From assembly GCA_050951545.1 (NCBI GenBank), contig JBMNJG010000011.1:288001-352000 (forward strand): a stretch of DNA of 64,000 nt. The letters are read 5' to 3'. Position numbers and translations under genes: made by a program. This document shows, one piece after another, positions 6,420 to 62,459 of the stretch. Position 1 is the stretch's first letter, and every line of letters starts with the position of its first letter. Under the pieces are notes generated by a model that was not told the DNA's origin, made no database searches, and was given only the letters and a program-made list of their open reading frames with translations. Source of the DNA: Limnochordia bacterium (GTDB taxonomy: Bacteria; Bacillota; Limnochordia; DTU080).

Positions 6420-8444
6420 GTGATGCAAGCTCGGGAAAAGCCGAGCAGTCGGCCTTTTCAGGTCGTTTCGGAGTACACACCAGCGGGGGATCAACCGCTG
6501 GCTATCGAGCAATTGGCCGAATCCATCAACGCCGGACGGCGGTACATGACGTTGTTGGGTGCTACTGGCACAGGAAAGACCTATACCATGGCCAAGGTCA
6601 TTGAGCGCGTGCAGAAACCGACGCTGGTGATCGCTCATAACAAGACCCTGGCCGCTCAGCTTTGCAGTGAGTTTCGCTCCTTCTTTCCCCATAACGCTGT
6701 ACACTACTTCATCAGTTACTATGACTACTTCCAGCCTGAGGCTTATGTACCTCAGACAGACACCTACATCGAGAAAGACTCATCCATCAACGATGAGATC
6801 GATCGCTTGCGTCACGCTGCCACCAGTGCTCTGTTTGAGCGGCGGGATGTGTTGATCGTAGCCAGTGTCTCTTGTATCTACGGTCTAGGCTCCCCGGACG
6901 ACTATGTAGCTATGACGTTGTCTTTGCAGAACGGGGATTTTCGTGACCGCGACAAGATCTTGCGGAAGCTGGTGGGTATACAGTACATCCGCAACGATAT
7001 CGGGTTCAAGCGGGGCACTTTTCGGGTACGGGGCGATGTCATCGAAATCGTCCCGGTCTATAACGAGAACGTCATCCGTATCGAACTCTTCGGCGACGAG
7101 GTAGAGCGCATTCTGGAGCTTGATCCACTTACTGGCGAAATCGTCGCTCGGCTGGATAAGATCAGCATCTATCCGGCGACACACTACGTCACTCCCGAGG
7201 AGAAGCTCAAGGGAGCGCTAGACTCTATCGAGCAGGAGTTGGACGAGCGCGTAAGCTTCCTCAAGCGAGAAGGCAAGCTCTTGGAGGCTCAGAGAACTGA
7301 GCAGCGTACGCGCTATGATCTGGAAATGCTTCGTGAGGTGGGCTATTGTCAGGGGGTGGAGAACTATTCCCGGCATCTCGATGGGCGAGAACCCGGTCAG
7401 CCTCCCCCGACCTTGCTCGACTACTTCCCTGGTGACTTTCTCATGATTGTCGACGAGTCACATCAGACCTTGCCTCAGGTACGGGGCATGTATTTTGGCG
7501 ACCGTTCACGCAAGGAGACCTTGGTAGAGTATGGTTTTCGCTTGCCCTCTGCCTTAGATAACCGTCCCCTCACATGGGATGAGTTTGAGCGTCATATGGT
7601 TCAGGCTGTTTTCACGTCCGCCACACCCGGCCCCTACGAGCGTCAGAAGAGTGAGGCAGTGATTGAGCAGATCATTCGTCCCACAGGGCTCTTGGATCCG
7701 GAAGTGGAGGTTCGCCCAGTTGATGGGCAGATTGATGATCTGATTGATGAGATCGAACAGGTTGTGGCCCGGGGCGAGCGGGTATTGGTTACGACGCTGA
7801 CCAAGAAAATGGCCGAGGACCTTACGGACTACCTCGCCGATACTGGCATCAAAGTGCGCTATCTACACTCCGAAATCCAGAGTCTCGAGCGCGTAGAGAT
7901 CCTGCGCGACCTGCGTCTAGGCGAGTTTGACGTTCTTGTCGGCATCAACTTGCTGCGGGAGGGACTTGACTTACCGGAGGTCTCGCTGGTTGCCATTTTG
8001 GACGCGGACCGGGAGGGCTTCTTGCGCTCTGATACAGCGTTGATCCAGACCATCGGGCGAGCGGCACGCAATATTAACGGGAAAGCCATTATGTACGCTG
8101 ACACAGTTACCGAATCTATGCGACGAGCCATTGACGAAACCAATCGTCGCCGGGCGGTGCAAAGAGCACATAACGAGGCTCACGGTATCACACCCGAAAC
8201 GGTGCGCAAGGCGATCCATGAGACCATTAGGGCTGAGCGCCCCGAGGAAGAGGCAGCGCCTGAAGCAGTCACCTCTGCTCGGCAGATGCTGGCCTCGCTG
8301 GACAGCAAGCACCTCGCAGGGCACATCAAGAAACTCGAGGCAGAGATGATTGAGGCTGCTAGGCGGTTGGAGTTCGAGCGGGCAGCGGAGTTGCGCGATG
8401 AGATCGCGGAGATGCGGGAGATCCTTTTGGAGTCTACAGGTTAG
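6420..8444 (+). CDS. uvrB: Excinuclease ABC subunit B
   Basis: [42 protein letters not shown]-terminal UVR domain. Confidence 0.99.
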
Positions 8445-54047: not shown

Positions 54048-55527
54048 TACACCGTTTGAGGTGATCGTGGGTCTCGAAGTTCACGCAGAACTGCTTACAG
54101 AGTCAAAGATATTCTGCGGTTGTTCGACGGCCTTTGGAGCCACGCCAAATACGCAGGTATGCCCTGTTTGCTTGGGCCTGCCAGGTACGTTACCAGTGCT
54201 CAACGAAAAGGCCGTTGAGTATGCCGCGAAAGCAGGTCTGGCTCTGGGGTGTGCCATTTCCTTGGTCAGCCGGTTCGATCGTAAGCAGTATTTCTATCCG
54301 GACCTTCCCAAGGCTTACCAGGTCTCGCAGTTTGATCGTCCCCTGTGTACAGACGGACGCGTGGAGTTCATGCTTGGCGGTGAGCTGCATGTAGTCAGGA
54401 TCATGCGGGTGCATATGGAAGAAGAGGCTGGTAAGTCTGTCCACTCCAGCGATAGCTTGCGCGACTCGCAGTACTCGCTTATCGACTACAATCGTGGTGG
54501 ACTAGCACTCATTGAGATCGTCACCCACCCCGACATGCATTCGGGTGACGAAGCCAGGCTCTTTATGGAGCGCCTGCACACTCTGCTGCGCTATATCGAG
54601 GTGTCAGATTGCAGGATGCAGGAAGGATCTCTGCGTTGCGATGCCAATGTCAACCTGAAGATCCTCTCCGGAGAGCAACCGATTCGTACCCCTATTGTGG
54701 AGATCAAGAATCTGAACTCCTTAAGAGCCTTGGAGCGAGCGATTGACTACGAGGCGCAGCGTCAGTACCATGAGTACCTTGATGGTTCGTGGCACCCCGG
54801 CATGCCATCTGGGAAGGTGACGGCGGGGTGGAATGATATCGAGAGTCGCACCTATGTGCAGCGTGAGAAAGAACACGCCGACGATTACCGTTACTTCCCT
54901 GACCCTGATATTCTACCGGTCGTAGTGCGCGAAGGGCAGGTAGAGGCGTGGCGCAGGCAGCTGCCCGAGCTGCCTGCAGCGCGCGAAGCTCGTTTCATAA
55001 GTGAGTATGACCTTCCCGCATATGATGCTGCAGTGCTTACAGCCTCTCGTCCCATCGCTGACTTCTTTGAGGCAGTGGTCGAGCAGTGTCATGACAGCAA
55101 GATGGTCAGTAACTGGATCATGGGCGAGTTGCTTCGGTTGCTCAAGGAGGCGGAAGACGACTCGGAGCATGCTCTTCTCTCGGCCCCCATCACCGCTGCA
55201 GGCTTGGCGCAGTTGCTGCTCATGGTCAAGGAGGGGCGCATTAACGCCAACAGCGGTAAAGAGGTCTTAGAGGTCATGTACCGCACTGGTCGTACGGCTG
55301 AGGACATTGTGCATGAACGTGGCCTAGAACAGATTAGCGACACCGATAAGCTAGATCGCTTAGTCGCAGAGGTCATCGACAAGCATCCTGAGGTGGTAAC
55401 TGAGATCAAGGGCGGGAAGGTAACGGCTATCGGCTTTCTCGTGGGTCAGGTGATGAAGGCGACCCGTGGTCAGGCCAATCCAAAATTGGTCAATCAGTCG
55501 TTGCGGGACCGACTGGGCGTGGATTAG
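54040..55527 (+). CDS. gatB: Asp/Glu-tRNA amidotransferase subunit B
   Basis: GLEVHAEL, YFYPDLPK, EEEAGK, LRCDANV, EIKNLNS, DYRYFPDPD, YqeY tail. Confidence 0.97.
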   Translation: MDDTPFEVIVGLEVHAELLTESKIFCGCSTAFGATPNTQVCPVCLGLPGTLPVLNEKAVEYAAKAGLALGCAISLVSRFDRKQYFYPDLPKAYQVSQFDRPLCTDGRVEFMLGGELHVVRIMRVHMEEEAGKSVHSSDSLRDSQYSLIDYNRGGLALIEIVTHPDMHSGDEARLFMERLHTLLRYIEVSDCRMQEGSLRCDANVNLKILSGEQPIRTPIVEIKNLNSLRALERAIDYEAQRQYHEYLDGSWHPGMPSGKVTAGWNDIESRTYVQREKEHADDYRYFPDPDILPVVVREGQVEAWRRQLPELPAAREARFISEYDLPAYDAAVLTASRPIADFFEAVVEQCHDSKMVSNWIMGELLRLLKEAEDDSEHALLSAPITAAGLAQLLLMVKEGRINANSGKEVLEVMYRTGRTAEDIVHERGLEQISDTDKLDRLVAEVIDKHPEVVTEIKGGKVTAIGFLVGQVMKATRGQANPKLVNQSLRDRLGVD

Positions 55528-55537
55528 GAGCTGGGGA

Positions 55538-56395
55538 ATGTATGGCGAGCTACTGCGGATAGGGCCCATTGCCCTCTATAAGTATGGGACCGCGTTGGCC
55601 GCGGCTTTTCTGGTTGGCGCATGTTTGGCGATGTCGGAGGCTCGGCGCCGCAGGCTGGACACGACAGTCATCGTTGAGCTAGTGGTGCATCTGATGGTGT
55701 TGGGCCTGATTAGCGGTAGAGTGGGCTACATCCTCCCAGACTTGGGTTTTTACCTAACCCATCCGAGTGAGTTTTTCAGGGTGTCGGCCGGTGGGCTGAG
55801 CTATGTTACCGCGTTTGTGGTGGCTGTTGGCTACACTCGTTTCTACGCGAAGCGTCGTGGGCTGCGTTTCTGGGAGCTGCTAGATATATTGGCTCCGGGT
55901 CTAGCCGCCGGGCTGATCATTGGGTCGCTAGGAGCCGTGGAGTGGCAGCCGGCGAAAGGCGCCGTGCATCTAGGCCCTATCTACTGGTCGCCACCGGTAC
56001 TGCTCTTTTTCACCATCGAATACGCTGGGTGTTGGTACATCATGGCGTCGCGACGTCGTCTGCCCGAAGGGCGACGCTTCTGCCAGATTGTGGCCGTGGA
56101 TGCTCTGGCTCGGATGCTGAGTAGTCTATGGGCCTGGATCCTCTATGAAGAGTTCTTGCCGCACGCTTTGTCGACGCTTGTGGGCGCGGTGTTTCTTGTT
56201 GGGGCGTTGGTGTTCGGGCAGATGCTCACCTTTCACCACAGCGGGTTACTGGAGAGTGCGGCGGCAGGTGAGATGACGCAGGCGCGGCGACCCCGCAAGC
56301 GGAGGCTGCCCGCGCGTCAGCGCGCAGTGCTTGCCGCCACTTGGCTAGGCTTTTATCTGCTTTTGGTCGGCTTGCTAGGTCGGACGCCGATGTAG
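55538..56395 (+). CDS. Lgt-like membrane protein (diverged prolipoprotein diacylglyceryl transferase)
   Basis: RIGPIALYKYG, GRVGYIL, GGLSY, LDILAPG match the Lgt N-half, but catalytic motifs are missing. Confidence 0.7.
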   Translation: MYGELLRIGPIALYKYGTALAAAFLVGACLAMSEARRRRLDTTVIVELVVHLMVLGLISGRVGYILPDLGFYLTHPSEFFRVSAGGLSYVTAFVVAVGYTRFYAKRRGLRFWELLDILAPGLAAGLIIGSLGAVEWQPAKGAVHLGPIYWSPPVLLFFTIEYAGCWYIMASRRRLPEGRRFCQIVAVDALARMLSSLWAWILYEEFLPHALSTLVGAVFLVGALVFGQMLTFHHSGLLESAAAGEMTQARRPRKRRLPARQRAVLAATWLGFYLLLVGLLGRTPM

Positions 56396-56402
56396 ATGCC
56401 AG

Positions 56403-56414
56403 CCCAGCTGCTTG
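56403..56414 (+). repeat. Left 12-bp direct repeat (candidate TSD/att core)
   Basis: CCCAGCTGCTTG, 7 bp after the lgt-like stop. Confidence 0.75.
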
Positions 56415-56462
56415 GGGGCCACGCAAGAAACTGCGGCAATCTTCCTGCGGTCGCTTGGGTTG

Positions 56463-56585
56463 GTGGTAAGAACCTAGCGATGCGGTCTTCGCGAAGCCCT
56501 TTTTGCTCATTTTGGTCGCCCGAAGGGCTTTTTTCACCGCCTAAGGGCACACTTTCCCGCCTTGATTTCGCTTCTGGGGCTACCG
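56463..56585 (+). repeat. Partial, diverged copy of the 406-bp unit
   Basis: GTGGTAA..AGCGATGCGGTCTTCGCGAAGCCCTTTTTGCTCATTTTG..CTTCTGGGGCTACCG; 472 bp upstream of the equivalent position in copy A. Confidence 0.9.
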
Positions 56586-56809
56586 TGGATACGCTTCACT
56601 TCGGCCCTACCAAAATGGCCTAGAAAGCTCACGGTAAGCTAGGCCGGTAAAACAGCGCGCTCACCAAAAACCTGCCATCGATCCAGGCCCCAAGCTGCGG
56701 GCCATGGATTCTGATGGACAACTCCTCCATGAGTTGCCCACAGACTCCACAGCCCCGACCAAAGACATCCATTGATTCATTTATTCGTTGTTTCTGGCTG
56801 TTATCTAGT

Positions 56810-57917
56810 TGGACACGCTCGCGAGACTGGCTCGGTAGTCGGACAGATGCACCCGGATTGGTACGTGAGTCGGGGCCAAGAATCCGACCGTGATGGCAAA
56901 ATAGCCGCCCCATCAACCCCTGGGCGCAATGTACGTGGTAAAAGTGCAGCGATGCGGCCTTCGCGAAGCCCTTTTTGCTCATTTTGATCGCCCGAAGGGC
57001 TCTTTTCCCCGCCAAGAGCACGCTTTCCCGTCTCATGGCCCTTCTGGAGCTACCGGGCAGTACATAACCGAACAGTGTCGATCGCCTTTTTCCACTCAGT
57101 CGATGGGGTCAGCTCCCCAGTGCGCGATCACAGCGGGCTCGCTCGGGTCCCTCTGCGAACCGACCCTTCGGTGTTAACCCGGTGGGTGTGTTTCGAAAAG
57201 GGTGGACGGACACCATGCACACCCTCGCGAGACTCGCTCGGTAGTCGGACAGATGCACCCGCATTGGTACGTGAGTCGGGGTCAAGAATCCGACCGTGAT
57301 GGCAAAAGAGCCGCCTCATTAACCCCCGGGGCCAATGTACGTGGTAAAAGTGCAGCGATGCGGCCTTCGCGAAGCCCTTTTGGTTGGTTTGGACGGCCTG
57401 AAGGGCTCTTTCCCCCCAAAAAGAGCGCGCTTTCCCGCCCTGGCGGCCCTTCTGGGGCTACCACGCAGCACATAACCGAACGGTAGTGACTGCCTTTTTC
57501 CACTCAGTCGATGGGGTCAGCTCCCCAGTGCGCGATCACAGCGGCTCGCTCGGGTCCCTCTGCGAACCGACCCTTCAGTGTTAACCCGGTCGGTGCATTT
57601 GGAAGAGAATGGACGGATCAATGGACACGCTCGCGAGACTGGCTCGGTAGTCGGACAGATGCACCCGGATTGGTACGTGAGTCGGGGCCAAGAATCCGAC
57701 CGTGATGGCAAAATAGCCGCCCCATCAACCCCTGGGCGCAATGTACGTGGTAAAAGTGCAGCGATGCGGCCTTCGCGAAGCCCTTTTTGCTCATTTTGAT
57801 CGCCCGAAGGGCTCTTTTCCCCGCAAAGAGCACGCTTTCCGGCCTTGATGCCTCTTCTGGAGCTGCCGGACGGTACATAACCCGACGGTGGTGGTACCTT
57901 TTTCCCACTCAGTCGAT
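56810..57917 (+). repeat. Tandem 406-bp non-coding repeat, ~2.7 copies (starts 56810, 57216, 57622)
   Basis: Marker GCGATGCGG at 56949, 57355, 57761. 56810-57012 is identical to 57622-57824. Confidence 0.97.
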
Positions 57918-58006
57918 GATCCGAGGGGGAAATGCTGTCGACTCCCGGTGGCCACTGGGTCTTAGCTGGCAATGCGCGCGCAGTCAGCGAAGAACTATTG
58001 TCTGTG

Positions 58007-58035
58007 GAAGGATTCTGGAGCCGAACATAGAATTC
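58007..58035 (+). promoter_or_regulatory. sigH-like promoter of the nuclease gene
   Basis: gaAGGAttc-...-ataGAATtc with a 17-bp AGGA-GAAT spacer. Confidence 0.5.
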
Positions 58036-58049
58036 AGCATTGAATCAAT

Positions 58050-58063
58050 CGAACACATGGTCG
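58050..58063 (+). promoter_or_regulatory. Putative LexA box
   Basis: CGAACACATGGTCG; one mismatch to CGAAC-RNRY-GTTCG, between the promoter and the RBS. Confidence 0.45.
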
Positions 58064-58081
58064 TTATGTGAGGTGAGGCCC

Positions 58082-59143
58082 TTGTACTCTCTCTATGTAG
58101 ATGAGGTGAACGTGCCGCTCTCACTGCTACTGACTCGCGAGCTAAAAGCCAGCGAGAAGATCGTTTGGATGGCCTTAACGATGGATGATCAGCTGGAGGA
58201 AAGTTTCCTTTTCTCGCCCAGCCGCCTGGGGCGGCGCACGGGTATGTCCCGGCCTACCGTTCGCAGGGCGACAGCCAAGTTAACCACCGAGGGCTGGTTT
58301 GCTCCACCGGCTAGGCGGGGACCTAGCCAGACCGCGGCACAGAAGCCATCCCCGGATAGGGTCTCCGTACCTGTGGAGTTAGTCATGGCTACTGAAATCC
58401 ATGCACAGGCCAAATTGGTTTATGCCCTACTGCTGTCCAAACCTACGGACCCACCTCGCAAAAGGCAGTTCACATACGCTGAGTTAGCCGGCCGGATGAG
58501 TCTGAGCCCCCAAACCATCAAACACGCGGCTCGTCAGTTGGCCAAGCATGGTTGGCTGGAGATGGAGCAGGCGCACAAGCGGGCACCGATTCGCTTCACT
58601 CTCCACAACCCGGTTGATAAGCGAAATGTAAAAGAAATACTAGACGTGCAGGATGAGCTCCACCGCGCTACGCACCTCGGAGAGGCTCTCATGCAGGCTA
58701 TCTTCTTGGCGCTTGTCGATTGCCTTGACTTCGACGACGGAATGCGCCCAGGTTTCATGAGGAACCCAGCAACTGGCAAGCGTCTGGAGGTCGATCTCTT
58801 CTATTACTTGCACAATACGGCCATGGAGTTCAATGGGGCGCAACACTACCGCGTCACGGAGCGGAATTCGGCTGAGCAGGTCCATAAGCAGCAATGCCGT
58901 GACCAGACCAAACAGCAGATCTGCGCTAAGAAGAAGATCAAGCTGATCGTGATTCAGGCTCACGAGCTGTCCTGCAAGATCATCAAGCGCAAGATTGACA
59001 GGCGGCTGCCATTCCGGCGCGGTCAGGACTTCAACCGGAAGCTCATCAACTATCTCGAGTGTAGATGCGGTGAATACCAGCAAAGAATAGATGAGCGCGG
59101 CTGGGGAACCGCCAGCCAATCTGAGAGAAAGCAAGACGAGTAG
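58082..59143 (+). CDS. Tandem winged-HTH + Vsr/DUF559-like endonuclease
   Basis: Two internally similar wHTH units; C-terminal GE..RPGFMRNPATGKRLEVD..AMEFNGAQHY..RDQTK..IKLIVI. TTG 58082 follows GAGGTG. Confidence 0.78.
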   Translation: MYSLYVDEVNVPLSLLLTRELKASEKIVWMALTMDDQLEESFLFSPSRLGRRTGMSRPTVRRATAKLTTEGWFAPPARRGPSQTAAQKPSPDRVSVPVELVMATEIHAQAKLVYALLLSKPTDPPRKRQFTYAELAGRMSLSPQTIKHAARQLAKHGWLEMEQAHKRAPIRFTLHNPVDKRNVKEILDVQDELHRATHLGEALMQAIFLALVDCLDFDDGMRPGFMRNPATGKRLEVDLFYYLHNTAMEFNGAQHYRVTERNSAEQVHKQQCRDQTKQQICAKKKIKLIVIQAHELSCKIIKRKIDRRLPFRRGQDFNRKLINYLECRCGEYQQRIDERGWGTASQSERKQDE

Positions 59144-59438
59144 TCACCTTGGGTCACCTTGTTCGTTTCGTCAGGGCTCACATCGCAGGAGGAGATGAAC
59201 CCTTTATCCGAGGCTGGAGGCCGCTGGCTACCCCATTGGCAGCGGATGCGTAGAAAGCGCCTGTAAGCAGGTTGTTGTTAGGCGCCACAAGCAATCTGGA
59301 ATGCGTTGGAGCCAACTTAGGGCACAGCAGATGCCAAACGTTGCAGCATACTCCCACGGTGAACAGTGGGACGATTTCTGGGAGAGGCCAGGGGCAGCAT
59401 GATTAGTAACGGGTGTTCGCCGCGATTTCACGTGTGCA

Positions 59439-59450
59439 CCCAGCTGCTTG
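59439..59450 (+). repeat. Right 12-bp direct repeat (candidate TSD/att core)
   Basis: CCCAGCTGCTTG, 7 bp before the valS -35 box. Confidence 0.75.
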
Positions 59451-59457
59451 CTTGTGC

Positions 59458-59486
59458 TTGACAGCCGGGAGGTTGAACTGTATGAT
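59458..59486 (+). promoter_or_regulatory. sigA promoter of valS leader
   Basis: TTGACA-17 bp-TATGAT. Confidence 0.8.
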
Positions 59487-59511
59487 GTGGAAAACTGGCT
59501 TATTGCACGGT

Positions 59512-59745
59512 GATGAAGGGGAGGAGTAACGGTTCAGCCCCGAAAAAAGAGAGGCTGCCCTTGGCTGGGAGGTAGCCCGGACGGACCGTGAATGTCGCCC
59601 TGGAGCAGCTTATCCCAAAATAGGCCGGGTGCGCCCGTTATCGCGTGTAGCAAGCGCCTTTGGTGCCCCCTTATGTGGTGTCAAAGGAACTAAGGTGGTA
59701 CCGCGCGAGTCTACGCGTCCTTATGGAGGACGCGTTTTTGTTTTT
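59512..59745 (+). ncRNA. T-box riboswitch (Val) upstream of valS
   Basis: AGTA, AGAGAG and GCTG stem-I motifs; GAA followed by GTC (59594-59596); T-box AAGGTGGTACCGCG (59692-59705); terminator ACGCGTCCT-tatgg-AGGACGCGT-TTTT. Confidence 0.93.
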
Positions 59746-59783
59746 AGCAGTTTGCGGATTAACCGAAGAGGAGGGAGCGCCGC

Positions 59784-62459
59784 ATGGCGCAACGCGTCTT
59801 TTCATCTACTGCAGCTGTGGAGCTACCCAAGGTGTATGATCCAAAGGCAGTGGAGAGCAAATGGTACAAGAGGTGGGAGGAGCGGGGCTACTTCCATGCC
59901 CAGGCTCGTCCCGGACGACCCAAGTTCAGCATGGTCATTCCGCCACCCAATGTGACGGGTTCATTGCACATGGGACATGCACTCAACAACACGTTGCAGG
60001 ATGTCTTACTGCGTTGGCACCGGATGATGGGCCATGACGCCCTTTGGGTTCCGGGCACGGATCACGCTGGAATTGCCACACAGATCAAAGTGGAGGAGCA
60101 CCTGCGCAAAGAAGAGGGTCTCACCCGTCACGATGTGGGGCGTGAGCGCTTCCTGGAGCGCGTCTGGGCCTGGAAAGAGCGATATCACGCAAACATTGTG
60201 GGCCAGCTGAAGACACTGGGTTGTGCGGTGGACTGGCAGCGAGAGCGCTTTACAATGGATGAGGGATGCTCCAAGGCGGTACGTGAGGTCTTCGTTCGGC
60301 TCTATGAGAGGGGCCTCATCTACCAGGGTAGCTACATCGTGAACTGGTGTCCGCACTGCCATACAACACTCTCTGACGTGGAAGTGGAGCATGAGGAAGT
60401 AGAGGGTCACCTGTGGTACATTCGCTATCCTATGGCTTCAGGTGAGGGGTATGCGATGGTTGCCACAACTCGTCCTGAGACCATGCTCGGCGATACGGCC
60501 ATAGCCGTGCATCCTGATGATGAACGCTATGCCGCTCAGGTGGGGCAGAGCGTTGTCTTGCCCCTGATGAATCGCGAGATACCGCTCATCGCAGATAGTT
60601 TCGTAGATCCGGCGTTCGGTACCGGCATGGTCAAGGTGACGCCAGCCCATGATCCGAATGACTGCGAGATGGGCGAACGCCACGGACTGGCCCGCATTCA
60701 GGTGATTGACGAAGATGGTTGTATGAACTCTGAAGCCGGGGCCTATGCTGGTCTGGAGCGCTATGCGTGTCGGGATAGCGTTGTTGCTGACCTGGAGAAG
60801 CAAGGCTTTCTGGTCAAGGTGGAGGATCATCTGCACGCAGTGGGTCACTGCTATCGCTGTGGCACGGTGGTAGAACCCCTGATCTCTAAGCAGTGGTTTG
60901 TCCGTATGAAGCCCTTGGCAGGTCCTGCTATCGAGGCGGTGCAGCGGGGCGACATCCGTTTTATCCCTGAGCGCTTTGCGAAGCAGTACCTGCACTGGAT
61001 GGAGAACACCCGAGACTGGTGTATCTCGCGCCAGTTGTGGTGGGGTCATCGCATTCCAGTTTGGACCTGTCAGGCTTGTGGAGAGCAGTTTGCTTCGAAA
61101 CACGACCCGGAGAAGTGCCCCGTATGTGCCGAAGCGCGACTAGAACAAGACCCGGATGTGCTCGATACCTGGTTTAGCTCTGCTCTCTGGCCTTTCTCAA
61201 CATTGGGGTGGCCGGACCAGACGGAAGACCTTGCCGATTTTTATCCTACTTCGGTCTTGGTTACGGCGTATGACATCATCACTTTCTGGGTGGCTCGCAT
61301 GATCTTTTCGGGTCTGGAGCACACAGGGCAAAAGCCCTTCCACGAGGTGCTGGTGCATGGGCTTGTGCGTGACGCATTGGGCCGAAAAATGAGTAAGTCG
61401 CTGGGCAATGGCGTAGATCCGCTCGAGGTGATCGACGAGAACGGCGCGGACGCGTTGCGCTTCACACTGCTTACGGGTGTGGCTCCGGGTAACGACACGC
61501 GCTATCATCCAGAGCGTACCGAAGCCAATCGGAACTATGCCAACAAGATCTGGAATGCCTCTCGCTTTGCTCTGATGAATATGCAGGATTTTCAACCAAC
61601 AGAGCAAGCCTTGACCGAGCTATCGCTCGAGCTTCCTGATCGCTGGATTCTGGCTCGCCTGAATTCGACAGTACGCGAAGTGAGCCGCCATCTGTCACGC
61701 TACGATTTCGGTGAGGGTGCACGGGCTCTGTACGACTTCATGTGGAGCGAAGTATGCGACTGGTATATCGAAGCTGTGAAACCGAGGCTGTACGGGCAGT
61801 ACGGTGCGGAGAGTCGCCGGACAGCTCAGAGCGTGCTTTGGCAGGTGCTTTTGCGCACTTTGGAGCTACTACACCCCTTCATGCCGTTTATCACGGAAGA
61901 GATATGGCAACACCTTCCTCATGAAGGCGAATCGATCATGCTAGCATCGTGGCCTGTCGAGGTTCCAGAGTGGGAAGATGGCGACGCGGTGGAGCAGATG
62001 GGGGTGGTGATGGACGTAGTGCGAGCCATCCGCAACATGCGCTCTGAGAAGACGGTGTCTCCCGAGAAGGCCATTCAGGCCATTCTCCATGCCGATGCGG
62101 GGAAGACCGCTATCTTGTCCGAAAACCGGGAGACAGTAATGCATTTGGCGCATCTGTCGGAGTTGGCGCTTGAGGGAGTGGATCATGCTAAGCCGGACCA
62201 AGCATTGGCGGCGGTGGCCGCGGGAGTTGAGGTATTCTTACCTCTAGCGGGCTTGGTTGACATTGACGAGGAGTTAGCTCGGCTACAGAAGGAGCTAGCA
62301 GAGGTTGATGAGCATCTGGCGCGTACTCGCGCTCGTCTCAGCAATCCGGGCTTTGTGAACAAGGCCCCTGCGCAGGTGGTGGAGGGTGCACGCCGCCAGC
62401 TAAGCGACTTGGAGGAGCGAAGAGCGAAACTGGCTGCAACGCTTGCCGATCTGCAGTGA
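59784..62459 (+). CDS. valS: Valine--tRNA ligase
   Basis: [39 protein letters not shown]-terminal coiled coil. Confidence 0.99.

Follow-up and report, generated by a model that had tools for sequence, protein, structure and literature searches.

The open reading frame (ORF) that encodes a protein with tandem winged helices and a Vsr-like nuclease domain (353 aa; 58082..59143, plus strand) is, in the reading to which we give a somewhat better than even chance, the only gene of an autonomous, SOS-controlled element resembling an insertion sequence and most probably the enzyme that mobilizes it. It lies in a window of 64,000 nt (the whole stretch of DNA that was analyzed) from an uncultured Limnochordia bacterium (GCA_050951545.1, contig JBMNJG010000011.1, positions 288,001 to 352,000 of the forward strand). 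The element is multicopy and recently active, with defined ends that carry imperfect terminal inverted repeats (TIRs) and with a 9-bp target-site duplication (TSD). Copies of the ORF are under purifying selection, and there is no other coding capacity in the element, which is missing from congeners; LexA-type boxes precede the ORF. The data point to a 3-kb selfish element that was recently copied about 15 times, and with it to a kind of transposon so far undescribed. Our literature search found no published description of the family and returned general papers on PD-(D/E)XK enzymes, papers on the homing endonuclease I-Bth0305I and unrelated ones.

Ends, copies and distribution of the element

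The copy in the window spans 3027 bp (56415..59441, plus strand) and belongs to the subfamily that we call A; its similarity to other genomic copies stops sharply at both ends. Both ends are abutted by the same 9-mer, AGCTGCTTG, which lies at 56406..56414 on the left and at 59442..59450 on the right (9/9 match). The termini form an imperfect TIR, in which the left end (56415..56441, plus strand, starting with GGGGCCACGC) matches the reverse complement of the right end (59415..59441, plus strand, finishing with CACGTGTGCACCC) at 18 of 27 positions (P about 2e-5), and this TIR is conserved at all ends found. A degenerate pattern derived from both termini occurs 20 times in the genome, always within subfamily A elements (20/20). 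Seven A copies have two ends: four carry a perfect 9-bp TSD, one matches at 8 of 9 positions, one matches at 9 of 9 after a 4-nt shift made by eye, and one (C2) has none. Because the flanks of the six subfamily C copies share no word of at least 7 nt at the boundaries (0/6), and two independent subfamily B copies have, by eye, at most a possible duplication of 3-4 nt, the 9-bp TSD is established for subfamily A only.

The flanks of different copies are mutually unrelated. When comparing right flanks, we found TTGAC within 45 nt in 6 out of 12, three of them at nt 17, versus 3.6% of controls (p 1.7e-6); half of the right flanks have a -35 box about 16 nt off. In the window, the insertion locus lies between an lgt-like gene and the valS leader, where 3305 nt separate the flanking matches, compared to 246 nt in the same-genus genome G001. 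At coarse resolution the insert is missing at this locus in both same-genus genomes (G001 and G002), and neither of them contains a member of the family. A base-exact empty site was not obtained, as these congeners are 71-81% identical and the intergenic DNA is unalignable.

Counting paralogues, as the original prediction had suggested, gave 34 places in the genome by tblastn (3.64 Mb; assembly 94% complete) and 15 full-length copies with nucleotide identities of 97.6-100%; the ORF is therefore no isolated oddity but the sole gene of a mobile element present in many copies. The mean dN/dS over 78 pairs is 0.17, and thus the spreading copies carried a working ORF. Three older subfamilies show protein identities to the query of 54-55%, 47-50% and 46-47%. 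Elements of subfamilies B and C are just 1.9-2.3 kb long, and across the four diverged subfamilies the non-coding parts differ while the winged-helix nuclease ORF is the sole gene in each. Word depth over the ORF was about 10-14 times that over the flanks in contigs of two metagenomes, which is a weak measure. Beyond this genus the distribution is patchy and multicopy, with a family match in 14 of the 41 genomes searched (the genome studied here included). Paralogues within the other genomes that we compared share 64-83% identity, and as most pairs resemble each other in essentially nothing but the ORF, those genomes show no sign of recent movement.

Paired winged helices and a Vsr-like nuclease domain

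The open frame as listed (58040..59143, plus strand, TTG start) encodes 367 aa. The start codon is likely the TTG at 58082, the coordinate given in the original prediction, because GAGGTGAGG stands just 5' of it and because a database protein (P0001) that is 98% identical has the same length of 353 aa; the frame is intact and ends in TAG. The putative ribosome-binding site GAGGTGAGG (58070..58078, plus strand) was read off the sequence and is kept in every A and B copy. Residues are numbered below in the 367-aa frame, and subtracting 14 gives the number in the 353-aa protein.

The N-terminal part had been described as an internal duplication of winged helix-turn-helix (wHTH) domains resembling replication initiators, and both aspects held up. 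The first repeat (residues ~21-97) aligns with the second (105-190) by BLASTP at an E of 5e-9 (28% identity over 68 aa), and two stretches are matched by Pfam families, namely HTH_36 (E 4.7e-9), HTH_Crp_2, HTH_24, MarR_2, GntR and MarR. Winged helix 1 (residues ~25-90; 58112..58309, plus strand) is delimited by the HTH_24, MarR_2, GntR and IclR families together with an AlphaFold2 model, and winged helix 2 (residues ~107-190; 58358..58609, plus strand) by Pfam HTH_36 at 119-173 and by VIA-align, in which it matches 1q1h (Z 9.2), 4pta, titled 'MDR initiator' (Z 8.6), and DnaB 5wtn (Z 8.4). In the PHROGs collection, the protein matches 'replication initiation O-like' (9.5e-8), 'replication initiation protein' (3e-7) and 'DnaD-like helicase loader' (5.8e-7). 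The modelled pair (residues 16-191) aligns with the iteron-bound Pi initiator (2nra_C) at Z 8.2 over 165 aa with an rmsd of 4.2.

A Vsr/PD-(D/E)XK-like core of the C-terminal domain is supported by structural modelling (residues 211-325; 58670..59014, plus strand; delimited by conservation, VIA-align and Foldseek). AlphaFold2 modelled the whole protein with a pLDDT of 84.7 and the C-terminal domain alone with one of 87.3. Comparing the latter against 48,161 chains with VIA-align, we found Vsr itself in the top row (1cw0_A, Z 8.3, 103 aa, rmsd 2.9), followed by a chain of the T. gondii mitoribosome (9g6k_L9, Z 8.0), I-Bth0305I (3r3p_B, Z 7.9, 93/98 residues), a DUF559-like protein (3hrl_A, Z 7.7, 88/94 residues) and the FAST/RAP module of FASTKD4 (9gek_A, Z 7.5), which the title of a paper calls Vsr-like. 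Four of the five top rows are thus Vsr, I-Bth0305I, 3hrl_A and 9gek_A, at Z values that lie in the middling range of VIA-align's own scale (7.5-8.3); going by entry titles, the remaining rows are mostly restriction-endonuclease-like nucleases. The original prediction of a Vsr/DUF559-like C-terminus with the fold of I-Bth0305I is therefore borne out at the level of the model. Other sequence and structure searches yielded little: Foldseek against the PDB returned no match at E <= 1e-3 with either the whole-protein or the C-domain model, and a PDB sequence search with the family profile returned HTH regulators only for the whole protein and nothing for the C-terminal domain. The nuclease part of the query has no Pfam match. 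DUF2726 (PF10881) matches 14 of 38 family members weakly (best E 3.5e-4) and leaves the query unmatched at E <= 1. DUF559 (PF04480) is absent among the Pfam families listed for these 38 members. Both names recur in structural neighbours and in BFVD. Vsr (PF03852) gives no match to the query at E <= 10, nor is it one of the 11 families that were listed for those members at E <= 1. The mismatch-repair endonuclease Vsr has a zinc site and intercalating tryptophans and partners a Dcm methyltransferase; the nuclease domain here has only one conserved cysteine, C295, and there is no methyltransferase gene inside the element.

Across 40 sequences, D252 and K291 are invariant, and conservation is at least 90% for D233, E263, N265, G266, Q268, H269, R287 and D288. 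The putative catalytic residues had been judged intact, and all 13 intact copies among the 15 do keep D233, E250, D252, E263, N265, H269, D288 and K291. In its published description (PMC3239194), I-Bth0305I has the conserved residues D196, an acidic residue, N208, H213 and D222 and leaves a 2-base 5' overhang. The residue order of the EDxHD motif and the spacing from the aspartate to the acidic-x-N segment agree with that description, the corresponding residues here being D252, E263, N265, H269 and D288; E250, D233 or E215 are candidates for the first acidic residue of the motif E...D...(acidic)-x-N...H...D. Both proteins are also bipartite, a DNA-binding N-terminal part preceding the nuclease, and both occur in the context of selfish elements. 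They differ in the interval from the histidine to the last aspartate (19 residues from H269 to D288, versus 9 in I-Bth0305I), in the DNA product (a 2-base overhang versus the 9-bp duplication seen here) and in the DNA-binding part, which consists of NUMOD motifs in I-Bth0305I and of two replication-initiator-type winged helices (HTH_36/MarR type) here. Moreover, nucleases of the I-Bth0305I type sit in group I introns, in inteins or free-standing in phages and home into the cognate empty allele, whereas we observe chromosomal copies at unrelated sites.

The original prediction had also noted a likeness to endonuclease-like ORFs of large DNA viruses. At E <= 1e-3, Foldseek found 107 matches in BFVD, with identities of 14-30% in the 50 that were listed; ORFs of Pithovirus, Mimivirus, Marseillevirus and Klosneuvirus are at the top together with phage proteins named 'VSR endonuclease', 'DUF559', 'DUF2726' and 'Homing endonuclease'. 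By tblastn against phages, SPbeta-like Staphylococcus phages and large Bacillus phages matched at 33-37% identity over 77-107 aa, in the nuclease domain only. What the element shares with these viral ORFs, annotated as DUF559, DUF2726 or 'restriction endonuclease', is the nuclease domain; judging from annotations only, the listed viral proteins have other partners (zinc ribbon, helicase or HNH) or are about as long as the nuclease domain, and a winged helix appears in none of the annotations. Neighbours in the ESM Atlas are viral clusters, some of them DUF2726 or DUF559, which is a lead only.

LexA-like boxes and 406-nt tandem units

A palindrome resembling a LexA box, CGAACACATGGTCG, stands 19 nt 5' of the start codon (58050..58063, plus strand). 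Every one of the four subfamilies has a GAAC-N4-GTTC-like box about 30-50 nt 5' of the start; in B it is perfect, whereas A has a degenerate form, with 1-2 mismatches in most copies. The lexA promoter of the same genome carries two strict boxes, both within the 25 strict hits found genome-wide, and two further box-like sites recognized by eye; 10 of the 25 strict boxes lie in right ends of subfamily A. This subterminal site is at 59406..59419 (plus strand) and reads GTAACGGGTGTTCG in the window copy and GGAACGGGTGTTCG in most copies, and position 59407 is a G in every compared contig that spans it. In other genomes, a strict box was found at 8 of 44 loci versus 0.45% of control windows. A simple sigma-70 scan gave no consensus promoter 5' of the ORF. 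The ORF sequence occurs in contigs of two metatranscriptome studies, which means presence in RNA libraries only.

Between the left end and the ORF lies a tandem array of about 3.6 units of ~406 nt (56463..58020, plus strand; repeat search and TRF), interrupted by an unrelated 233-nt segment at 56586-56818. Genome-wide, we found 25 arrays or remnants that span 0.3-5.9 unit lengths, with 1.4-5.9 units 5' of the ORF per copy (1.7-5.9 where the ORF has its full length), and 54 units have a mean identity of 87%. The head of the unit resembles the left end of the element (z 3.2-3.9) and its tail a short variant of the right end (z 2.7-3.6); shuffling gave no support to a match between the tail and the standard right end (z below 0), so that only the short variant fits. 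Within units, left- and right-end-like segments abut at a distance of 7 nt, and two tails contain junctions of a right end with a left end. The units look like head-to-tail, ORF-less mini-elements and not like an RNA gene. The original prediction had entertained a repeat RNA, an idea that our results do not support: in 55500-60000, Rfam (E <= 1) matched the valS T-box only, with no intron-like RNA, and RNAalifold on the 54 units (460 columns) gave a weak consensus fold with sparse pairs (-48 kcal/mol on the plus and -56 kcal/mol on the minus strand), which gives no support to a structured repeat RNA, and the units resemble the element's own ends. Because the minus strand of the units has long stop-free stretches (median 115 aa), we also tested them for coding; their variation lacks a 3-nt periodicity (p 0.29), and protein-coding repeats were rejected.

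Proposed mobility and alternative explanations

No DDE, DEDD, HUH, serine or tyrosine recombinase domain was found in the protein by Pfam and NCBIfam, which returned HTH families only, and the element has no second ORF. We propose that DNA damage would lead to cleavage of LexA and thereby to production of the winged-helix nuclease, whose two winged helices would recognize sites that recur close to the termini and that the head-to-tail 406-nt units multiply. Cleavage at the termini may then fall to the Vsr-like domain, probably acting as a dimer like I-Bth0305I. This domain would also cut the target with a 9-bp stagger, in many cases about 16 nt 5' of a sigma-A -35 box; filling in the stagger would give the 9-bp duplication. 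The joining step might be carried out by the nuclease, by the end-joining machinery of the host, which has Ku, or by a replicative route. A bolder proposal, which we advance tentatively and hold to be a real but less than even prospect, is that the element represents a new class of prokaryotic transposon with a homing-endonuclease-derived wHTH-Vsr/EDxHD protein as its sole transposase, and that it is SOS-induced, makes a 9-bp TSD, preferentially targets sites about 16 nt 5' of sigma-A -35 boxes and builds head-to-tail arrays of its ends, possibly by way of a circular or rolling-circle intermediate.

Known transposons share some of these features. The element has shared sharp ends at unrelated sites, TIRs and, in subfamily A, a 9-bp TSD, as insertion sequences do. 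The IS30, IS21, IS3 and IS256 families, which use DDE transposases, form abutted-end junctions or tandem dimers, and the element resembles them in its TIRs, fixed-length duplication, multicopy bursts, ORF-less miniatures and right-end/left-end junctions a few bases apart; in contrast to them, it has no known transposase domain that we could find, and its stable internal arrays of up to ~6 head-to-tail units are unusual. A parallel for the nuclease fold in a transposon is TnsA of Tn7, described as a PD-(D/E)XK-fold nuclease acting as a transposase subunit (PMC3424549). TnsA (PDB 1T0F/1F1Z) is a fold neighbour of the C-terminal domain at Z 6.3 over 105 aa, below the Vsr group. Whereas the element here has no second gene, TnsA depends on the DDE protein TnsB and acts with it and TnsC/D/E, and the Tn7 duplication is 5 bp. 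To our knowledge, established prokaryotic transposases are all DDE/RNase H-like, DEDD or HUH enzymes or serine or tyrosine recombinases, with the PD-(D/E)XK protein TnsA only a helper, and we know of no strand transfer by a PD-(D/E)XK or Vsr-like nuclease, which counts against our best reading.

In other explanations the nuclease performs less of the chemistry. The protein might make a site-specific break only, with host recombination or repair copying the cassette in and no transposase-like chemistry, comparable to free-standing homing endonuclease genes of phages. I-Bth0305I is the closest characterized relative by fold and motif, PHROGs matches include 'homing endonuclease' (8.2e-10) and 'intron encoded nuclease' (5.9e-6), and the subfamily C copies have no detectable duplication. 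However, classical homing requires homologous flanks and leaves no duplication, whereas the flanks here are unrelated and 6 of the 7 complete A copies have the 9-bp duplication, so that we consider this account unlikely, if still a serious contender. We consider it improbable that a conventional transposase which escaped detection moves a non-autonomous element in trans, with the winged-helix nuclease as cargo (serving, for example, as a regulator, in addiction or exclusion, or in defence). DDE transposons typically combine TIRs with a 9-bp duplication, we know of no precedent for a Vsr-like nuclease fold as sole transposase, and since the assembly is 94% complete, a transposase with matching ends might lie unassembled. 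Against this, the terminal pattern is restricted to these elements (20/20), the ORF is the only gene kept in four diverged subfamilies with different non-coding parts, dN/dS among copies is low, and PADLOC gave no significant match.

The winged helices and the arrays also suggest an integrated mini-replicon, in which an iteron-binding initiator nicks DNA, as Vsr-type enzymes are nickases, and rolling-circle copying of an excised circle yields head-to-tail concatemers. The pair of winged helices aligns with the Pi initiator (PDB 2NRA), which likewise has two consecutive winged helices and direct repeats adjoining its gene, PHROGs returned replication initiators, end-like segments abut in the units, and tandem repeats (period of at least 30) are enriched beside homologues in other genomes (1.88 versus 0.55 arrays per 10 kb, p 5e-6; the loci are not independent). 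Iteron initiators, however, lack a nuclease domain and act in plasmid or phage replicons with ~20-bp iterons at an origin, unlike the nuclease, 406-nt repeats and chromosomal multicopy state seen here; equally high winged-helix scores occur with many unrelated regulators, tblastn found no homologue in 72,556 plasmid records, and the compared contigs, a weak test as they are contigs only, contain neither a joint that skips the whole element nor an end-to-end circle joint. We therefore rate a mini-replicon as quite improbable. An ordinary host family of repair nucleases or transcription factors expanded by duplication would account for winged helices, which are frequent in regulators, and for SOS control as in repair genes, but is very hard to reconcile with near-identical copies at unrelated loci with TIRs and duplications, with their absence from both congeners and with a patchy multicopy distribution (14/41 genomes), and we give it next to no weight.

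Returning to the reading that we favour, in which the winged-helix nuclease is the mobility enzyme of its own element, the family is not small: at E <= 1e-10 the nuclease-domain profile matched 2270 cluster representatives, 267 of them at E <= 1e-30, and most of the 150 matches listed have equal length and a C-terminal nuclease. If movement by a Vsr-like nuclease alone is true, it would add a class to the known transposases and form a mechanistic link between homing endonucleases and transposons. There could also be practical interest in so compact a nuclease, which would be directed by two winged helices and would cut with a defined stagger. For the bacterium, SOS control combined with insertion just upstream of promoters would, if true, make the element a damage-triggered, gene-sparing remodeller of the genome.

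Winged helices and predicted nuclease domain of the ORF product

The frame that we analyzed is open for 367 codons (58040..59143, forward strand) and probably starts at the TTG at 58082, which is also where the original prediction placed it, following a ribosome-binding site at 58070-58078 (GAGGTGAGG). Its product is 98% identical to the nearest database protein (P0001, 353 residues); residue numbers below refer to the 367-aa frame. Pfam returned only helix-turn-helix families (six in two stretches, the top one being HTH_36 at E 4.7e-9). The internal duplication proposed in the original prediction is real, because the N-terminal halves match each other (BLASTP E 5e-9, 28% identity over 68 residues). 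Their suggested resemblance to replication initiators also held up: both halves matched the PHROGs families 'replication initiation O-like', 'replication initiation protein', and 'DnaD-like helicase loader' (E 1e-7 to 6e-7). In an AlphaFold2 model of the whole protein (mean pLDDT 84.7, pTM 0.74), the winged-helix pair (residues 16-191) aligned with the Pi initiator on iteron DNA (2nra_C; Z 8.2, 165 residues, rmsd 4.2) and the second winged helix with the 'MDR initiator' (4pta, Z 8.6) and Geobacillus DnaB (5wtn, Z 8.4), scores that many ordinary regulators equal.

The C-terminal 170 residues had no Pfam match, and the family profile found no match for this domain among PDB sequences. DUF2726 was weakly matched in 14 out of 38 family members (best E 3.5e-4); in the PD-(D/E)XK group table of Steczkiewicz et al., 2012 (PMC3424549), VSR, DUF559, and DUF2726 share one row, and DUF2726 (PF10881) also has a row of its own. 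The original prediction had named AlphaFold and Foldseek as checks on a Vsr/DUF559-like fold. Foldseek found nothing in the PDB at E <= 1e-3, whereas structural alignment of the domain modeled alone (pLDDT 87.3) to 48,161 PDB chains agreed with that fold. The best match was Vsr (1cw0_A; Z 8.3, 103 residues, rmsd 2.9), followed by a T. gondii mitoribosomal chain (9g6k_L9, Z 8.0), I-Bth0305I (3r3p_B; Z 7.9, 93/98 residues), DUF559-like NGO0050 (3hrl_A, Z 7.7), and the FAST/RAP module of FASTKD4 (9gek_A, Z 7.5), all within what the alignment tool calls the 'middling' range; TnsA scored below the Vsr group (Z 6.3). Most remaining matches were, judging from their titles, restriction-endonuclease-like nucleases. 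The weight of this model-based fold match is carried by Vsr, I-Bth0305I, NGO0050, and FASTKD4, which take four of the top five rows.

Further comparisons agree with this assignment. Residues 232-307 matched the PHROGs families 'homing endonuclease' (8.2e-10) and 'intron encoded nuclease' (5.9e-6), and BFVD yielded 107 viral matches at E <= 1e-3, which include phage proteins annotated 'VSR endonuclease', 'DUF559', 'DUF2726', and 'homing endonuclease' as well as giant-virus 'restriction endonuclease' ORFs, bearing out the suggested likeness to ORFs of large DNA viruses. Among 40 family sequences, D252 and K291 never vary, and conservation reaches at least 90% at D233, E263, N265, G266, Q268, H269, R287, and D288. 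For I-Bth0305I, PMC3239194 names D196, a further acidic position two residues ahead of N208, and finally H213 and D222; the predicted ordered series of acidic residues, ExNG, and histidine is found here with the same residue order and D-to-E-x-N spacing.

Copies, ends, and insertion sites

The gene lies in an element with the hallmarks of transposition. The original prediction had suggested counting paralogs: in the host genome assembly (3.64 Mb, 16 contigs, 94% complete), tblastn of the ORF product gave 34 matches, including 15 full-length subfamily A copies of the ORF (97.6-100% nucleotide identity). Three older subfamilies are 54-55% (B, four copies), 47-50% (C, about seven), and 46-47% (D, two) identical to the query protein. 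Thirteen of the 15 copies are intact, and every one of these retains the candidate catalytic residues, as anticipated; the mean pairwise dN/dS among them is 0.17 across 78 non-independent pairs. The element's only gene, encoding a predicted two-winged-helix, Vsr-like nuclease, is thus kept by selection.

Similarity among A copies starts exactly at 56415 and stops at 59441, with unrelated flanks, and the ends form an imperfect inverted repeat (18/27 positions, P ~2e-5). Among the seven A copies with both ends on one contig, four sit between perfect 9-bp direct repeats (AGCTGCTTG in the window copy), one between repeats matching at 8/9 positions, and one between repeats that match at 9/9 if a 4-nt change at the right tip is allowed (by eye); the seventh has none. 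A further pair, in which the right end is of a short variant (C4:283514/286793), agrees at about 6/9 positions by eye. All 20 terminal-pattern matches in the assembly lie in A elements, so that no partner element sharing the termini was found there. Neither of the two same-genus genomes contains a family member or an insert at this locus: the lgt-like gene match and the valS leader match are 246 nt apart in one of them (G001) versus 3305 nt in the window. Intergenic DNA of the same-genus genomes has diverged too far to define an empty site to the exact base. Word depth, a weak measure, was 10-14 times higher on ORF-covering than on flank-covering contigs in two metagenomes of different habitats, and contigs crossed the left element-flank junction in metagenome run X1 and the right one in X1 and X5. 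RNA-library contigs of two metatranscriptome assemblies (X15 and X16) join window position 58490 to 59404; the joined form equals an internally deleted derivative on host contig C14 (272-353 joined to 234-271) with its flank, so both assemblies contain sequence of this deleted copy.

TTGAC occurs within 45 nt of the right flank in 6 out of 12 A copies, three times at exactly nt 17 (control 3.6%, p 1.7e-6). In the window, the valS/T-box promoter (TTGACA-17-TATGAT, 59458-59486, 11/12 consensus positions) starts 17 nt after the element. This proximity may reflect targeting of promoters, or the persistence of insertions that do no harm in very short spacers. The T-box leader (59504-59725; RF00230, 101 bits, E 3e-22) before valS (59784-62459) is intact after the insertion.

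LexA boxes and the repeat array

LexA boxes stand in front of the ORF. All subfamilies have a Bacillota-type palindrome (GAAC-N4-GTTC) some 30-50 nt ahead of the start codon, within surrounding DNA that differs. This box is perfect in B, occurs twice in C and D, and carries one or two mismatches in most A copies. Of 25 strict boxes in the genome, 16 are in these elements, 10 of those at A right ends. In other genomes, a strict box was found upstream in 8/44 homolog loci, compared to 0.45% of control windows. On sequence grounds, these boxes support induction of the element by DNA damage. The organism's own lexA promoter (C12:76080-76290), with two strict boxes and two box-like sites identified by eye, supplies its own box consensus.

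The region upstream of the ORF holds an array of ~406-nt units. The genome has 25 such arrays or remnants of 0.3-5.9 unit lengths (1.7-5.9 upstream of a full-length ORF), with 54 near-full units of 87% mean identity. None of the tests applied pointed to an RNA gene or a coding repeat: the units had no Rfam match, the consensus folding of the 54 units was weak, and their variation lacked codon periodicity (p 0.29). The unit head resembles the element's left end (z 3.2-3.9, reached by 1-2 of 500 shuffles). The unit tail, 7 nt before the next unit, resembles the right end in its short variant (z 2.7-3.6, reached by 4 and 14 of 1000 shuffles). Homology between this variant and the standard right end is clear (z 9.4); a direct comparison of the tail with the standard right end was not significant. 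A right-end/left-end junction also occurs in the 3' tails of two copies. We read the array as head-to-tail miniature elements without an ORF. Downstream of the ORF, tandem units of 93 nt (C) and ~250 nt (B) have one copy of the same motif upstream. In other genomes, 28 out of 77 homolog loci have a tandem repeat (period at least 30), with 1.88 arrays per 10 kb within 1.5 kb of homologs versus 0.55 further away (p 5e-6, loci being non-independent).

A 233-nt segment replaces part of one unit (56586-56818); the genome has four copies of it, 97-98% identical (the window, C13:20071-20303, C14:2151-2384, and C7:70981-71212), adjoining an element or remnant of the family in three cases and lying ~0.8 kb from a subfamily B copy in the fourth (C13). 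Directly after the right boundary of a subfamily C copy (~6618-6650 of locus L100, contig C5) stands GGGGCCACGCAA, the 12 nt with which the subfamily A left end begins; this could be a remnant junction or chance. The genome's sole Ku (PF02735) match (C3:133863-134384) lies ~150 nt from the left end of an A copy (C3:130865-133716), which may be coincidence.

Possible mechanism and relationships

We propose that, once bound to the repeated end modules, the protein would cleave the element at its ends and cut the target with a 9-bp stagger. To our knowledge, no Vsr-like or PD-(D/E)XK enzyme performs strand transfer; Ku is present in this genome, so that end-joining of the cut-out element into the staggered break would be possible. 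The abutted ends and initiator-like helices would also allow a circular or rolling-circle intermediate. Subfamily C copies have sharp boundaries and no duplication of at least 7 nt (0/6), and other genomes contain old paralogs, most pairs of which are similar essentially within the ORF only; together with the A copy lacking a duplication, they argue against a single simple story.

The predicted nuclease is probably related to, and would work like, EDxHD homing endonucleases, but two features that define these enzymes are missing: NUMOD DNA-binding repeats and a homing context in an intron, intein, or phage. In its behavior the element resembles an insertion sequence, yet it lacks a transposase of known class. 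Homologs are confined to Bacillota MAGs (Limnochordia, Symbiobacteriaceae, and Thermaerobacter among them) and a few distant matches; the plasmids searched contained none, and phage matches cover the nuclease domain only. Against 1.84 billion proteins, a nuclease-domain profile retrieved 267 representatives at E <= 1e-30, 2270 at E <= 1e-10, and 15,525 at E <= 1e-3. In a same-family genome, two family paralogs adjoin (L013:1534-2556 and L013:2802-3815, extracted from G004 contig C120). A full-text literature search, judged from titles and abstract openings, found no published account of such an element. In summary, the observation behind the original prediction is confirmed and its interpretation supported. 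The larger finding is an undescribed family of SOS-linked mobile elements whose sole protein is a predicted nuclease of the homing-endonuclease type.
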